DNA of 4,766 nt. Origin: a virus. Lineage: Duplodnaviria; Heunggongvirae; Uroviricota; Caudoviricetes. Shown piece by piece: positions 1,356 to 4,486 of this stretch. Made by a program: the position numbers and the translations under genes. Where the stretch lies: the IMG/VR virus record IMGVR_UViG_3300026367_000039, positions 1 to 4,766 of that record, one strand, 5' to 3'. Position 1 is the first letter of the stretch. Each line of letters begins with the position of its first letter. The notes below the pieces were generated by a model, which saw nothing but the letters and a program-made list of their open reading frames with translations, searched no databases and had not been told where the DNA came from.

Positions 1356-2725
1356 GCGCGTTTCCTCCTGCGACGCGCCGGGCTCTTGGCCTCAGTTGGT
1401 TCCGCGACACGGTTGGCTGTCCGTCCCGTCGCCAGTTCCCAGCGCCGCACGGCGACGTCGCAGTAAGCGGGGTCCAGTTCCATCGCAAAACACCTCCGCC
1501 CAGCACGTTCGGCGGCCACCAGCTGGGTGCCAGAGCCGCAGAACGGCTCGTAGATCAGGTCGCCCGGATCGGTGAACGCCGTCAGCACTGCTTCAACCAG
1601 CGCCACCGGAAACACTGCGGGATGCGATCCGGCCGCGCCCAGCCCGCCCTTGTGACGCATGATGCGGAACACGCTGTCTGGGATGCGATGACTCTGGATC
1701 GCATTGCCGAAGCCCGTCTTGCGATGGACCGCGCCATCCGCCCCGCGCAAACCCCCACCGCCGAGGATCTCGCCCGCGTGCTTGCTCTCGACCGTCTTGT
1801 GCGGTTTGCGGGGCGCGCGGTTGAAGTGGAAAATGAACTCGTGCGACGGGGCCAGTCGGCCGTTCCAATCGCCCGGCAGGCCGGGCCCCTGATCCCAGAC
1901 ATACCAGCCAAACCGTCGCCAGCCAGATGCGCGCATCCATTCCACCCATCCTTCCCAATAGGGCTGCCATTCGCTGTCGCGATGCACGAGGCCAAGGTTG
2001 ACCAGCAGCTGGGCATCGGCGCAGACCGGTGCGGCAGCGAACACGCCCTGCACCAGCGCATCCCAATCGCCGACCTTTTCCTTGGCCGCGCCGTAGTCGC
2101 GTTGCTGGGCGTAGGGCGGCGAGGTGAACATCAGCGTCGCCGCCTCATTCTGCATCAGCTTGGCGACGGCGGCGGGATCGGTCGCATCGCCACAGCAGAG
2201 CCGGTGCTTGCCCAGCGCCCAGATGTCGCCCGGACGCGTGATAGGTTCAGCGGGCGGTTCGGGGATGGCGTCGGCCGCATCGTCGGAAATCACCGGGCGG
2301 TCGTCGGCGTCTGCCAACAGCGCGTCCAGTTCATCCTCGGGGATCCCGATCAGCCCGAGGTCGAAATCCTCTGCCAGCAGCGCCTGCAATTCCTGCAACA
2401 GCAGCGCTTCGTCCCAGCCGCCCAGCTCGGTTAACTTATTGTCAGCGATGCGATAAGCCCGGCGCTGCGCCTCGGTCAGATGGCCAAGAATGATGACGGG
2501 GGCCTCGGTCAGCCCAAGGTGTGCAGCTGCCAGGACGCGACCGTGGCCTGCGATCAACTCGCCATCAGCCGCGACCAGCACCGGCACGGTCCAACCGAAC
2601 TCGGCCATGCTGGCGGCGATCTTCGCGACCTGATTTGCATCGTGGGTCTTGGCGTTGCGGGCGTAAGGCTTCAGACGGGCAAGGGGCCAGTGCTCGATCC
2701 GGCCCGGCAGGATGGGTGCGTTCAT
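1352..2725 (-). CDS. ParB-like N-terminal domain fused to a beta-class DNA methyltransferase, SPPY variant (possibly N4-cytosine); 457 aa
   Basis: N-terminus MNAPILPGRIEHWPLARLKPYARNAK...DGELIAGHGRVLAAA carries the ParB/Srx-fold G-H-x-R motif. Motif IV is TSPPY, followed by HPAVFP and then the AdoMet motif I EPFCGSGTQ, i.e. beta-class order IV before I. Start placed at ATG 2725 (not the longest-ORF ATG at 2860) because the paralog alignment begins there and it forms an ATGA overlap with the upstream gene's stop. Confidence 0.85.
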   Translation of the reverse strand: MNAPILPGRIEHWPLARLKPYARNAKTHDANQVAKIAASMAEFGWTVPVLVAADGELIAGHGRVLAAAHLGLTEAPVIILGHLTEAQRRAYRIADNKLTELGGWDEALLLQELQALLAEDFDLGLIGIPEDELDALLADADDRPVISDDAADAIPEPPAEPITRPGDIWALGKHRLCCGDATDPAAVAKLMQNEAATLMFTSPPYAQQRDYGAAKEKVGDWDALVQGVFAAAPVCADAQLLVNLGLVHRDSEWQPYWEGWVEWMRASGWRRFGWYVWDQGPGLPGDWNGRLAPSHEFIFHFNRAPRKPHKTVESKHAGEILGGGGLRGADGAVHRKTGFGNAIQSHRIPDSVFRIMRHKGGLGAAGSHPAVFPVALVEAVLTAFTDPGDLIYEPFCGSGTQLVAAERAGRRCFAMELDPAYCDVAVRRWELATGRTANRVAEPTEAKSPARRRRKRA

Positions 2726-3981
2726 GCCGCCAGCCTCTTCGCCTTCAGGTCGGCAAAAGTCTCGCCAGTCTCGACCAGCGCGGCATTGGCGCCGGTGAAC
2801 TGCTGCCAGCGCTCGATGGCGACATCGACGTAAGCCGGGTTCAATTCGATGCCGAAGCACACGCGCCCGGTGGTTTCCGCCGCGATCAGCGTTGTGCCGG
2901 ACCCCATGAAAGGTTCAAACACCGCCTGACCGGGGCTGGAGTTGTTCAGGATCGGCCGGCGCATGCATTCGACCGGCTTTTGCGTGCCGTGCACGGTGGC
3001 AGCGTCCTGATCCTTGCCGGAGATGTGCCACAGCGTGGTCTGTTTCCGGTCCCCGGCCCAGTGGCCCTTGCCGGTCTTCTTCACCGCGTACCAGCAGGGT
3101 TCATGCTGCCAGTGATAGTCGCCCCGGCTGAGAACCAGCCGGTCCTTTGCCCAGATGATCTGCGAGCGCACGTTGAAGCCTGCCGCCACCAGGCTTTCCG
3201 CGACGGTCGCCGCGTGCAGCGCGCCATGCCAGACGTAAGCCACGTCGCCTGGGAACAGCGCCCAAGCCTCGCGCCAATCCGCGCGGTCATCGTTCAGCAC
3301 CTTGCCTATGCGCTTGGTTTTGGCGGCCCCCGCCTGGTTGCGCCAGGATGGGTCATATTCCACGCCATAGGGCGGGTCCGTCACCATCAGCAGAGGGCGA
3401 ATATCGCCCAGCAATCGCCCGACCACATCCGCAGACGTGCTGTCGCCGCAGATCAGCCGGTGCGATCCCAGCTGCCAAAGGTCGCCCACAACCGACACCG
3501 GCGTGACCGGCGGTTCGGGAATGTCATCCTCTCCGTCGGCAGCGCCACCTTCCAACTGGTCCGGGTCGCGCAGCAATGCATCCAGATCCTCGTCGGTGAT
3601 GCCCAGCAGCGACAGGTCGAAATCGTCGGCGAGCAGTCCCGCGATCTCATCGCGCAGCATCGCCTCGTCCCACTCGCCCAGCTCGGTCAATTTGTTGTCC
3701 GCGATCCGGTAGGCGCGGCGCTCTGCCTCGTCGAGATGGCTGAGCCGGATCACCGGCACATCCTTCAGCCCCAGCATGGCGGCCGCCAGCACACGGCCAT
3801 GCCCCGCGATCAGCTCGCCATCGTCGGCCACCATGCAGGGCACTGTCCAGCCGAACTTTGCCATGCTTGCTGCGATCTTGGCAACCTGGTCGGTGCCGTG
3901 GATCTTGGCGTTGCGGGCATAGGGGCGCAGCCGGTCAATCGGCCACGTCTCGATCTGGCTCGGTGCAAAGACCAGGTCCAT
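2722..3981 (-). CDS. ParB-like N-terminal domain fused to a beta-class N6-adenine DNA methyltransferase (CcrM/HinfI-like motifs); 419 aa
   Basis: N-terminus MDLVFAPSQIETWPIDRLRPYARNAK...DGELIAGHGRVLAAA (ParB-like). Motif IV VTDPPYG, then HGTQKP and FEPFMGSGTT, matching the CcrM-type DPPY / TQKP / FxGxGTT pattern in beta-class order. Strong GC3 bias; TGA stop at 2724..2722. Confidence 0.9.
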   Translation of the reverse strand: MDLVFAPSQIETWPIDRLRPYARNAKIHGTDQVAKIAASMAKFGWTVPCMVADDGELIAGHGRVLAAAMLGLKDVPVIRLSHLDEAERRAYRIADNKLTELGEWDEAMLRDEIAGLLADDFDLSLLGITDEDLDALLRDPDQLEGGAADGEDDIPEPPVTPVSVVGDLWQLGSHRLICGDSTSADVVGRLLGDIRPLLMVTDPPYGVEYDPSWRNQAGAAKTKRIGKVLNDDRADWREAWALFPGDVAYVWHGALHAATVAESLVAAGFNVRSQIIWAKDRLVLSRGDYHWQHEPCWYAVKKTGKGHWAGDRKQTTLWHISGKDQDAATVHGTQKPVECMRRPILNNSSPGQAVFEPFMGSGTTLIAAETTGRVCFGIELNPAYVDVAIERWQQFTGANAALVETGETFADLKAKRLAA

Positions 3982-4105
3982 GGGCGGTTCTCATTTGGGC
4001 AGAGCGGGCATGCCAACGGGCGCGGGCAATATGGCCAGCGACAGGATCGGGATCCGCGATGTGGGGGAAAACGAAAGCGCCCGAGAGGGGTGTCATCCGG
4101 GCGCA

Positions 4106-4133
4106 ATTCTTCGATGATTAAGAGGTACGTCAA
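4106..4133 (-). promoter_or_regulatory. candidate sigma70-like promoter for the methyltransferase operon (weak)
   Basis: On the minus strand, TTGACG (reverse complement of 4128-4133), a 16-nt spacer, then AAGAAT (reverse complement of 4106-4111), about 120 nt upstream of ATG 3981. The -10 match is only 4/6, so this is a by-eye guess. Confidence 0.15.
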
Positions 4134-4220
4134 GGGGGCTAGAAATGTCAACCCATTTTATGACGTGGAATCAACGCGTTCTGCGGGTTCGGGGTTTGCG
4201 GGGAAAAGCCGGTGTCGCGA

Positions 4221-4270
4221 GTGGCTTTCCGGGGTGGCTTTCTGGCCAGCGTGGCTACCAAAAAGTGGCT
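4221..4270. repeat. array of four direct GTGGCT(T) repeats (iteron-like or operator-like)
   Basis: GTGGCT at 4221, 4234, 4251 and 4265 (GTGGCTTTCC, GTGGCTTTCT, GTGGCTACCA, GTGGCTTGCC), spaced 13, 17 and 14 bp. About 0.01 occurrences of one oriented hexamer are expected by chance in 50 bp. Confidence 0.6.
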
Positions 4271-4274
4271 TGCC

Positions 4275-4295
4275 TGGATTCCACCGAGGAATCCA
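4275..4295. repeat. perfect 8-bp inverted repeat TGGATTCC-N5-GGAATCCA (candidate dimeric protein-binding site)
   Basis: TGGATTCC (4275-4282) and GGAATCCA (4288-4295) are exact reverse complements around the spacer ACCGA. Each arm contains a GANTC site. It lies immediately after the GTGGCT array. Confidence 0.6.
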
Positions 4296-4351
4296 CTTAG
4301 CCAGAAGGGTGAGACCCTAAGCATTTGATAATGAGTCAAAATTCAGGGTCG

Positions 4352-4397
4352 AGCCACTGGCTTGGCTTCGAAGTGGATTCCCCGGTGAAAAAGCCAC
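4352..4397. repeat. two opposite-orientation copies of the GTGGCT motif flanking TGGCTT repeats and a third TGGATTCC
   Basis: AGCCAC (reverse complement of GTGGCT) at 4352-4357 and 4392-4397; TGGCTT at 4358-4363 and 4363-4368; TGGATTCC again at 4374-4381. Confidence 0.5.
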
Positions 4398-4421
4398 GCG
4401 CTAGCGAAATGCCGCGCTAAG

Positions 4422-4468
4422 CCCCCCCGTATACGGATAGGGCCGGGGAGGAACCATGCTGGGGGGGG
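4422..4468. other. C7 homopolymer, 10-bp perfect palindrome CCGTATACGG, and G8 homopolymer
   Basis: C-tract 4422-4428, palindrome 4427-4436, G-tract 4461-4468. The C and G tracts are complementary and could pair, or could act as slipped-strand tracts. Confidence 0.5.
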
Positions 4469-4486
4469 TCGTGTCGGTTCCGGCCC
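4440..4486. other. GC-rich imperfect hairpin (about 11 bp of stem, 20-nt loop)
   Basis: GGGCCG (4440-4445) pairs with CGGCCC (4481-4486) and GAACC (4451-4455) pairs with GGTTC (4476-4480). No downstream T-tract, so it is not a typical intrinsic terminator. Confidence 0.35.

Follow-up and report, generated by a model that had tools for sequence, protein, structure and literature searches.

ParB-methyltransferases have been described in Paracoccus prophages, where all of them (n = 36) lie upstream of the terminase and have been proposed to direct modification during packaging (PMC6536676; PMC4738411). The "ParB-Tls locus" of phages is credited to Iyer et al. 2013 in the citing text of Decewicz et al. 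2019 (PMC6536676). Our study has shown that the two methyltransferase genes (A and B) of the window, a 4,766-nt stretch of DNA that was analysed as a whole, almost certainly belong to this Paracoccus-type ParB-Tls group. They have the same N-terminal ParB domain and PF01555 core, the same host group (Paracoccaceae/Rhodobacterales) and the same place upstream of the terminase. A ParB-methyltransferase fusion upstream of a terminase is an already described architecture, and the locus adds no new kind of system. Decewicz et al. 2019 did not analyse the N-terminal module (N-module) separately and described neither a tandem of A and B, nor a conflict between domain trees, nor module swaps (PMC6536676); Decewicz 2017 nowhere mentions ParB.

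Two further systems are close to this locus. According to papers citing Xu et al. 2012 (PMC3592412, PMC3459991, PMC5512222), BCE_0392 of a Bacillus cereus ATCC 10987 prophage joins a ParB fold to an adenine methyltransferase, is encoded beside terminase S and has m6A activity in vivo. It differs from A and B in its Firmicute host and in the non-specific nicking that is reported for it. Acidithiobacillus phage AcaML1 (gp24/gp25) and Ralstonia phage YO164_3 possess, like the window, two overlapping ParB-methyltransferase genes, and here the pair is followed by a small gene, an opposite-strand block and TerS-TerL-portal. The core of AcaML1 gp24 is of the B type with an SPPY motif and is an orthologue of the B core at 59% identity, as is the Ralstonia phage core. 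In both phages, however, the B-type gene comes first, the second gene has a third type of core (DPPYNVNY) that is only 45% identical to A, and the N-modules belong to another clade (51-61% identical to those of the window).

Genes A and B are homologous over their whole length and are arranged in tandem (Table 1). The stop of A and the start of B overlap as ATGA, and the same overlap recurs between the stop of B and the start of the DUF7220 gene, the third gene of the coupled chain. Among 80 related loci, B is intact behind A in 46 and the DUF7220 gene is present in 31. It is well supported that both A and B encode orphan DNA methyltransferases of the beta class, that they belong to a Rhodobacterales prophage and that they head a translationally coupled chain of A, B and DUF7220 a few kilobases ahead of the terminase genes. 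The first-pass annotation had located its observations at 2722-3981, which is correct for gene A and leaves out the second N-module, at about 2321-2725. The strings that it quoted (RLRPYARNAK, DGELIAGHGRVLAAA and RRAYRIADNKLTELG) are all present in A and have near-identical counterparts in B.

Table 1. Positions of features in the window and its upstream elements
Feature	Position	Strand	Remarks
Gene A, ParB-fold N-module + beta-class DNA methyltransferase, 419 aa	2722..3981	-	ORF; PF01555 E=2e-21; phrog_498 full length E=2.5e-154
Gene B, second ParB-fold + beta-class methyltransferase, 457 aa	1352..2725	-	ATG at 2725
DUF7220 gene, 70 aa	1143..1355	-	PF23858 E=4e-32
A N-module, residues 1-135, exchangeable cassette	3577..3981	-	ParB/Srx core + three-helix extension
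A ParB/Srx core, residues 8-108	3658-3960	-	
A GHGR (G60-R63)	3793..3804	-	Position of ParB Box II / P-motif GxxR (GERR)
A N24	3910..3912	-	Invariant; aligned with M. xanthus ParB Q52
A D95-N96	3694..3699	-	Aligned with E-N of ParB Box III (ENLQR)
A linker, about residues 136-165	3487..3576	-	Flexible, acidic, proline-rich; lowest model confidence
A methyltransferase core, residues 166-404	2770..3486	-	Motif IV DPPY at 3367-3378; FMGSGT near C-terminus
B N-module, residues 1-135	2321..2725	-	TIGR00180 E=5e-5
B GHGR	2537-2548	-	
B N24	2654-2656	-	
B D95-N96	2438-2443	-	
B methyltransferase core	1406..2230	-	SPPY at 2111-2122
Promoter-like hexamers upstream of A, conserved	4061..4147 (whole element)	-	TTGACA at 4147; TTGACG-16-AAGAAT at 4133-4106
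GC hairpin + T-run	about 4104-4061		Directly after the hexamers
GGAAnCCA repeats, 5 exact matches	within 4222-4381		230-400 nt upstream of A

The terminase lies outside the 4.8-kb window, and its context was taken from related loci. All five ORFs of the window match phage families. The gene order A-(B)-(DUF7220)-DUF3489-...-TerS-TerL was found in at least 54 of the 80 loci as well as in pRA03 and phage AcaML1; downstream, a TerS-like gene was present in 56 and TerL in 54 of the 80, and the pRA03 neighbourhood contains capsid, protease and terminase genes. The locus thus has the composition of a ParB-Tls locus, with a fused ParB domain and modification gene just upstream of the terminase in a (pro)phage. 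None of 50,697 phage records matched the window in megablast; the context was drawn from protein-level searches and from collections of plasmids and genomes. A link to the plasmid leading-region or single-strand methyltransferases (M.EcoGIX / M.BceJIII) was considered and rejected, as the context of the window is phage and not conjugative; the paper on these enzymes has ParB homologues only as separate neighbouring genes.

The C-terminal part of both A and B is an N6_N4 methyltransferase domain (PF01555, E about 1e-20). In A, DPPY (residues 202-205) precedes FMGSGT (motif I, 358-363), which is the beta-class order. The (D/S)PPY motif ahead of motif I, the SAM-MTase fold and the PF01555 match identify beta-class N6/N4 methyltransferases, and Foldseek with the full-length model of A returned methyltransferases only (M1.HpyAVI, M.BceJIV and CcrM, E about 1e-14). 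A DPPY motif IV points to N6-adenine as the target and SPPY to N4-cytosine. DPPY suggests that A is an N6-adenine methyltransferase, a prediction from its sequence, and by its SPPY B is possibly an N4-cytosine methyltransferase. The middle (target-recognition) region differs between the two cores. PADLOC reported MTase_II/orphan-MTase models only, with no defence-system partner, and no nuclease family matched A, B or the three neighbouring ORFs. The single-chain restriction-modification-like enzyme suggested earlier is therefore not indicated, with no endonuclease domain or partner gene found in A, B or these ORFs.

The N-module had also been described as the best-conserved part of both fusions and as nearly identical between them. 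Between the paralogues A and B, the first description is accurate: residues 8-108 are 76% identical (1-110, 73%), compared with 47% in the linker and about 41% in the methyltransferase region (166-400). "Nearly identical" overstates the likeness, as 24-27% of residues differ and synonymous sites are saturated (N-module dS about 1.3-1.4, as elsewhere; third-position identity 50%). These values led us to reject recent gene conversion as the source of the likeness in the window. With paralogue dS saturated, the likeness of the N-modules must be held at the protein level. Best conservation is confined to this paralogue comparison. Among orthologues of A (n = 81), identity is equal in the N-module and the methyltransferase (90.9% vs 91.6%), and 47 orthologues of B gave 87.7% vs 89.3%. 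In 121 diverse full-length relatives, the N-module is the less conserved part, with a mean pairwise identity of 30% vs 49% for the methyltransferase and 4/101 vs 41/235 columns at 90% or more. That the N-module is under selection of its own was nevertheless borne out. Among orthologues of A, dN/dS is 0.058 for the N-module and 0.070 for the core; among those of B, it is 0.051 and 0.108. The N-module is under strong purifying selection (dN/dS about 0.05-0.06).

According to the first-pass annotation, A and B are alike because of a tandem duplication: the cores were then free to diverge, and the N-module, as the most constrained part, was held almost unchanged. The tandem arrangement with full-length homology agrees with this, as do the 76% identity of the N-modules next to about 40% in the cores and, in B, an orthologue dN/dS that is about half as high in the N-module as in the core. 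However, neighbour-joining trees built separately for the N-module and the methyltransferase conflict at 200/200 bootstraps. In the methyltransferase tree, the B core falls in a clade with the B-type cores of AcaML1 and a Ralstonia phage (200/200) and the A core among other A-type cores (200/200), whereas in the N-module tree A, B and one relative stand together (200/200) and the B-type clade was recovered in 0/200. Between the three phage lineages, identity is 59-70% for the B-type cores but only 51-61% for the N-modules attached to them, below the 72-76% seen within a phage (in AcaML1, the gp24 and gp25 N-modules are 72% identical and the cores 34%). Further, the N-module and the core are equally constrained in A, and family-wide the N-module evolves faster than the core (mean N/MT identity ratio 0.65, vs 2.17 for the A/B pair).

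Exchange of N-modules can be seen directly in related loci. In L030, the A and B N-modules are 98% identical in protein, 91% in DNA and 77% at third positions, with cores at 40%, and in this locus recent gene conversion does apply. In L025 and L026, the B core is 93% identical to that of the window and the N-module is foreign (54-62%); the A and B N-modules resident there are only 54% identical. The step in identity occurs at about residue 136 in L030 and about residue 150 in L025, placing the breakpoints in the linker. It is well supported that the N-module is an independent evolutionary unit that recombines between cores at the linker. The conflicting trees and the visible swaps together argue that the A/B likeness arose by module exchange or homogenisation, followed by constraint, and not by simple retention; we regard duplication with retention as very improbable.

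The AF2 model of A has a pLDDT of 90.7, which drops to 68-77 in blocks 131-150 (the linker). The N-module has the alpha+beta fold of the ParB N-domain, and its profile matched 6SDK (E=1e-14) and 1VZ0 (E=5e-14) in the PDB. The proposed membership of the ParB/Srx superfamily is supported by both fold and profile matches. Single N-module sequences are below threshold in Pfam PF02195 (17-18 bits vs 26.3) and in TIGR00180. The predicted position of GHGR at the ParB GERR box was likewise correct: in a profile-to-PDB alignment, its four residues share their columns with the GERR of ParB from B. subtilis, T. thermophilus and M. xanthus (6SDK, 1VZ0, 7BNK). Across 36-109 relatives, G60 never varies and at least 90% keep R63; N96 reaches the same level in the family. 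M. xanthus Q52 is Ala in 7BNR (Q52A mutant, CTPgammaS-bound), whose sequence shows A at the N24 column. By alignment, the most invariant residues of the N-module (N24, R/K26, G60, R63 and D95-N96) line the ParB nucleotide/phosphate pocket, and the columns that are invariant or conserved to at least 90% pair N24 with M. xanthus Q52, GHGR with GERR and D95-N96 with the E-N of Box III. The N-module thus evolves on its own as an exchangeable cassette, and what it conserves is the nucleotide pocket, which makes the pocket, and not the surface, the target for mutation.

The best sequence-profile matches of the N-module are the ParB/Spo0J, Noc and KorB clamps. It shares their fold and has similar residues at their GxxR, Box I Arg/Lys and Box III acidic-Asn positions. 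Unlike these clamps, A and B have GHGR in place of GERR and Asn in place of Gln at M. xanthus Q52, and they lack a helix-turn-helix, a C-terminal dimerisation domain, a ParA-interaction peptide, a parS site and a ParA neighbour. Residues 106-137, where a helix-turn-helix would follow the N-domain, form three short helices that lead into the low-confidence linker and the methyltransferase, and profile searches of A and B gave no helix-turn-helix family match. The C-terminus is the PF01555 core in place of a dimerisation domain, and no ParA was found in the window or in the pRA03 and AcaML1 neighbourhoods. Any clamp would consequently need the methyltransferase domain to dimerise and bind DNA.

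Like ParB at parS, the N-module might recognise one particular DNA sequence, be it centromere-like or, for instance, in the repeats that precede A. A conserved GGAAnCCA array is present, with five exact matches where 0.87 are expected for the whole window. However, ParB recognises its sites by the helix-turn-helix domain that A and B lack, ParA is missing from the window and the neighbours examined, and the repeats, which lie upstream of a promoter-like element, look like regulator sites. Since neither a helix-turn-helix nor a C-terminal dimerisation domain is present, the centromere role is unsupported and we give it hardly any weight. The promoter-like element itself consists of hexamers and a GC hairpin with a T-run (-17.2 kcal/mol, z=-2.5) and proved conserved when 31 loci were aligned. 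Neither Rfam nor tRNA scans of the window returned anything.

Our best explanation, which we put forward tentatively, is that A and B are ParB-Tls methyltransferases in which an NTP-binding cassette engages the enzyme with phage DNA around packaging. The cassette would bind a nucleotide triphosphate, ATP or CTP, and would not recognise a specific DNA site of its own. Its part would be to bring the methyltransferase to phage DNA that is already replicated and double-stranded, or to keep it there, at the late stage of infection around packaging; to this end, the two N-modules of a methyltransferase dimer may associate with each other in an NTP-dependent way. Late expression of A and B is inferred from gene position only. 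As an outcome, progeny genomes would be efficiently methylated at two specificities before they meet the restriction systems of a new host, with adenine-N6 marks predicted for A (DPPY) and cytosine-N4 marks possibly made by B (SPPY). Candidate activities listed earlier for the module (NTP binding, DNA loading, nuclease) are the same as those considered in the superfamily literature.

Published work bears on this explanation in both directions. The window strings GHGRVLA and GWTVP correspond to Box II (GHQRTKA) and a loop (GFILP) of an ATP-binding ParB-fold/SAM-methyltransferase fusion (PMC12704722). The ATP-binding ParB-fold/Methyltransf_23 fusion of that paper has a GHxR Box II like that of A and B, but it is bacterial and its methyltransferase is of another family (PMC12704722). 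As that 2025 survey reports, R-to-A substitution in GxxR abolished binding in all binders tested, and NTP specificity is not predictable from sequence or AF3; N6_N4-methyltransferase fusions are among its candidates, and none is among the 11 NTP binders that it lists, which weighs against our explanation (PMC12704722). The 5mYOX-associated phage ParB is, like A and B, a ParB-fold serving a DNA-modifying enzyme in phages, and phage ParB activates the DNA-modifying dioxygenase specifically on dsDNA (PMC13229309). Unlike the N-module, this ParB is not fused to its enzyme and has a C-terminal dimerisation domain of its own, and it remains active and keeps its function with NTP-pocket residues mutated, a second point against (PMC13229309). 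A third is that ParB works as a site-loaded clamp by virtue of a helix-turn-helix and a C-terminal dimerisation domain, both of which are missing from the N-module.

A further objection comes from BCE_0392, for which the citing papers report non-specific nicking, with the same pocket as the proposed DNase site. Nicking is the main rival to the NTP-module explanation. The N-module would be a metal-dependent, sequence-non-specific nicking endonuclease, possibly NTP-regulated, and the fusion would nick and methylate phage or host DNA, for example in replication, concatemer processing or packaging. BCE_0392, whose likeness to A and B is one of architecture, would be the precedent by analogy. The closest sequence relatives of the N-module are the CTP-binding ParB/Noc group and not characterised nucleases, and there is no nuclease-specific diagnostic motif for the ParB-fold pocket. 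Reports of ParB-fold nucleases are also old and partly in vitro, and non-specific nicking fused to a DNA-protecting enzyme would call for extra regulation. We therefore consider nicking unlikely. Somewhat less probable still is that the N-module serves as an adaptor between proteins and that its pocket is vestigial; it would dock on a phage partner (the terminase, the portal or some further protein encoded in the locus) or allosterically activate the fused core on dsDNA with no nucleotide cycle. The invariant columns are exactly the pocket residues, which is hard to square with a vestigial site, and no partner has been identified. Moreover, L025 and L026 retain both A and B despite their dissimilar N-modules.

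Returning to the NTP-binding cassette, co-resident N-modules tend to stay alike (76% in the window, 72% in AcaML1 and 98% in L030). From this, we speculate that they pair via the ParB-type nucleotide-sandwich interface, so that A and B, joined in an NTP-gated heterodimeric ring, would ride on phage DNA as it is packaged and place two different marks in a single pass, with the N-module as a "matching tag"; we would call this a long shot. If true, the N-module would decide which methyltransferases team up, and swapping it would re-wire the teams. Natural variants of gene B (matched, mismatched and N-only) offer a ready-made comparison series.

Fusions of a ParB fold to a methyltransferase rank among the most frequent forms in which phages use the ParB-CTPase fold, with relatives of gene A at E<=1e-30 forming 6,710 clusters at 50% identity. 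The curated threshold of Pfam ParB_N misses the N-module clade of A and B, and surveys that depend on such thresholds consequently under-count these fusions.

Genes A and B form an adjacent minus-strand pair, each encoding a ParB-like N-terminal module (N-module, residues ~1-135), a linker and a C-terminal PF01555 N6_N4 methyltransferase domain, the core. All five window products matched phage protein families, with phrog_498 covering the full length of both A (E=2.5e-154) and B (E=7.8e-118). Motif IV precedes motif I in both cores, which is the beta-class order, and reads DPPY in A and SPPY in B. ATGA stop/start overlaps at 2722-2725 (A/B) and 1352-1355 (B/DUF7220) join the three minus-strand genes, so A, B and the DUF7220 gene are a translationally coupled chain. 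For B, the mechanical ORF list gives a longer 502-aa GTG ORF that extends back into A; the 457-aa ATG start was used. The 163-aa ORF and the DUF3489 gene, divergently oriented, separate the methyltransferase chain from the terminase genes.

Genes and upstream elements of the locus (window coordinates)
Feature	Position	Strand	Remarks
Gene A	3981-2722	minus	419 aa
Gene B	2725-1352	minus	457 aa, counted from the ATG overlapping A's stop
DUF7220 gene	1355-1143	minus	70 aa
163-aa ORF	24-515	plus	phrog_8020; function unknown
DUF3489 gene	552-1133	plus	phrog_10315, E=3e-59; function unknown
GC-rich block	4465-4395		conserved; upstream of A
GGAAnCCA(C) repeat array	~4385-4215		upstream of A
TTGACA hexamer	4147		promoter-like, conserved
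TTGACG-16-AAGAAT	4133-4106		promoter-like, conserved
GC hairpin + T-run	~4104-4061		directly after the hexamers; -17.2 kcal/mol, z=-2.5

A profile built from 36 diverse N-modules reached E=1e-14 with B. subtilis ParB-CDP (6SDK) and 5e-14 with Spo0J of T. thermophilus, and also matched M. xanthus ParB, Noc and C. crescentus ParB; further matches were to pNOB8 ParB-N (2e-6), sulfiredoxin (2.6e-4), then SbnI and KorB. At the level of sequence comparison this settles that the N-module is a ParB/Srx domain, as the first-pass annotation had proposed. Its placement of GHGR at the position of the ParB GERR box was likewise borne out, since HMM alignments put G60-H-G-R63 on the G-E-R-R of Box II (the GxxR P-motif). 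In the same alignments M. xanthus ParB has Q52 where the module has its invariant N24 (chain 7BNR, the Q52A mutant, shows Ala in this column), while R/K26 falls on the Arg after the Q52 column and D95-N96 on the E-N of Box III. Six columns (N24, G44, P48, G60, R63 and N96) are invariant or at least 90% conserved among 36-109 relatives; the nucleotide/phosphate pocket is therefore the most conserved feature of the module. Single window N-modules score only 17-18 bits against PF02195 (Pfam ParB_N; gathering threshold 26.3 bits) and E=5e-5 to 8e-4 against TIGR00180, in both cases below the curated cut-off. As a result, a precomputed PF02195/ParB annotation exists for only ~6 of the 120 nearest database relatives, and any count of ParB-fold fusions that relies on the curated Pfam cut-off will overlook this abundant clade.

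The N-module had been described as nearly identical in A and B and as the best-conserved part of both. The two proteins are 42% identical over their full length, 76% over residues 8-108 (73% over 1-110), 47% in the linker (111-165) and ~41% in the methyltransferase region (166-400), which has large indels in its middle. The N-module is by far the most alike region of the pair, but 76% is not near-identity. Synonymous sites are saturated throughout, N-module included (dS 1.3-1.4; third-position identity 0.50), which rules out recent gene conversion of these two N-modules; their likeness has therefore been held at the protein level. Best conservation holds between the paralogues only. We used 80 genomic loci from a species-representative genome collection (almost all Rhodobacterales; A orthologues 83-96% identical) and added the plasmid locus on Roseicitreum antarcticum pRA03 to the orthologue sets. 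Mean pairwise identity was 90.9% for the N-module versus 91.6% for the core among 81 A orthologues, and 87.7% versus 89.3% among 47 B orthologues. Orthologue dN/dS, in comparisons that all share the window sequence and are thus not independent, was 0.058 versus 0.070 in A and 0.051 versus 0.108 in B. Both parts are under strong purifying selection; in B the N-module is about twice as constrained as the core, and in A the two are on a par. In the wider family, represented by 121 full-length members of 50%-identity clusters (ranked by similarity to A, so that the longer core dominates), the N-module is less conserved than the core by mean pairwise identity (30% versus 49%), column entropy (2.45 versus 1.80 bits) and columns at least 90% conserved (4/101 versus 41/235). 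One relative has a core 82% identical to that of A and an N-module only 50% identical, and no representative reaches 70% identity to A in the N-module except B, whose core is 35-37% identical.

The first-pass annotation had explained the pair by duplication, after which the cores diverged while the head stayed frozen. Domain trees (neighbour-joining, 200 bootstraps, N-module and core separately) conflict on this point. The core tree recovered a B-type and an A-type clade in 200/200 replicates each and A+B together in 0/200, whereas the N-module tree recovered A+B with one relative, P0123, in 200/200, A+B in 151/200 and a B-type clade in 0/200. Two cultured phages, Acidithiobacillus phage AcaML1 (gp24/gp25) and Ralstonia phage YO164_3, share the tandem pair and its gene order: two ParB-methyltransferase genes that overlap, followed by a small gene, a block on the opposite strand and then TerS, TerL (terminase small and large subunits), portal and protease. 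In AcaML1 the opposite-strand block comprises six small genes and is the equivalent of the 163-aa ORF/DUF3489 block. The B-type cores of these phages (SPPYANQRN) are 59% identical to that of B and 70% to each other, while the N-modules attached to them reach just 51-61% identity with the N-module of B; the AcaML1 pair itself shows 72% identity between its N-modules and 34% between its cores. Exchange is directly visible in other loci. In L030 (Rhodobacter sp. SW2, 6001-8618) protein identity between the A and B N-modules is 98% and DNA identity 91% (77% at third positions); past residue ~135 identity falls to background, with cores at 40%. In L025 and L026 (7367-8779) the core of B shares 93% identity with that of window B, but its N-module matches A at 54%, window B at 62% and the AcaML1/Ralstonia type at 70%; the two parts meet at residue ~150. 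The N-module thus behaves as a cassette. Taken together, the conflicting trees and these swaps indicate that the core split is old, predating the window, AcaML1 and Ralstonia phage lineages, and that the likeness of co-resident N-modules is more recent, produced by exchange or conversion of the cassette at linker breakpoints and then maintained by purifying selection. These results contradict duplication with a frozen head: the original observation was real and its fold and motif assignments right, but its strength and evolutionary reading were overstated. Separate copies of the locus occur within single genomes, namely three in one MAG (AG16; L008, L013, L026) and two each in Rhodobacter sp. 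SW2 (L005, L030) and Roseovarius sp. MBR-78 (L033, L039), which fits polylysogeny by related prophages and ample opportunity for N-module exchange.

The locus is the phage 'ParB-Tls locus' arrangement, already described and named. Decewicz et al. reported that Paracoccus prophages encode 36 m6A/m4C methyltransferases with a ParB domain, every one of them upstream of terminase (PMC6536676), and a 2025 survey describes ParB-CTPase/N6_N4-methyltransferase fusions as strongly enriched in phages and prophages (PMC12704722). At the DNA level the window shares 86% identity with a prophage region of pRA03. There the pair has as neighbours genes for DUF3489, a TerS-like protein, the large terminase subunit, a protease, and decoration and capsid proteins. 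Downstream of A, DUF3489 is found in 67/80 loci, a TerS-like gene in 56/80 and TerL in 54/80. A is intact in all loci, including those with a decaying or missing B; B is facultative, being intact in 46 (nearly always starting at the ATGA overlap with A's stop), fragmentary in ~10 (2 only through contig ends) and absent in 17. Decaying or truncated B was seen in ~8 loci (L004, L019, L020, L035, L048, L050, L056, L061). In L019, L035 and L061 the remnant is a 150-238-aa ORF with the N-module only, which is either a pseudogene or encodes a ParB-like protein that naturally stands alone; phrog_620/15396, which match the N-module at E ~1e-50, offer a comparison for stand-alone ParB-like ORFs.

On the already recognised question of what the ParB head does for the methyltransferase, we tentatively favour, at somewhat under an even chance, a module that binds a nucleotide triphosphate and would thereby bring the methyltransferase onto replicated phage dsDNA, or keep it there, late in infection. 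Before packaging, progeny DNA would thus bear two marks, an adenine-N6 mark set by A and a possible cytosine-N4 mark set by B. An earlier proposal, cited by Decewicz et al., has ParB directing the modification apparatus to phage DNA at packaging (PMC6536676; PMC4738411). In supplementary Fig. S6 of PMC12704722, an ATP-binding ParB-fold/SAM methyltransferase fusion has GHQRTKA in Box II and a GFILP loop, where the window N-module has GHGRVLA and GWTVP. In that survey, R-to-A in GxxR abolished binding in every binder, and N6_N4-methyltransferase fusions were included in the nucleotide-binding screen, with none named among the 11 binders. A nickase has a direct precedent in a B. cereus prophage ParB-methyltransferase adjoining terminase S, for which citing papers describe non-specific DNA nicking and m6A (PMC3592412, PMC3459991, PMC5512222); we consider this role rather unlikely here. 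A phage ParB that activates a thymine dioxygenase, on dsDNA only and with cognate partner specificity, still works with its pocket residues mutated (PMC13229309), and an NTP-independent adaptor or activator is an unlikely reading of a module whose pocket is its most conserved feature. That the heads serve as a heterodimerisation tag is improbable, the mismatched A/B pairs of L025 and L026 opposing any strict need for matching heads. We give hardly any weight to a site-specific, centromere-like DNA binder; domain searches and the structure model revealed no HTH or C-terminal dimerisation domain in A or B, and no ParA was present in the window, pRA03 or AcaML1 neighbourhoods. Family searches and PADLOC found no restriction partner for A or B. 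After the prophage-like region, pRA03 (L001, 16501-21393 and neighbours) carries a type ISP restriction/modification enzyme, a DUF262 (GmrSD-like) protein and another methyltransferase; this cluster adjoins the conserved module and lies outside it.

Upstream of A, ~490 nt of non-coding DNA (3982-4470, minus-strand reading) are 68-78% conserved in most related loci, and similarity stops at the end of this region, marking a module boundary. GRAADCCA has six exact matches in the window, five of them within 4222-4381, against 0.87 expected window-wide. An Rfam scan of the region gave no match. The layout resembles that of a regulated late promoter followed by a terminator, analogous to lambda PR'-tR' with Q-type antitermination.
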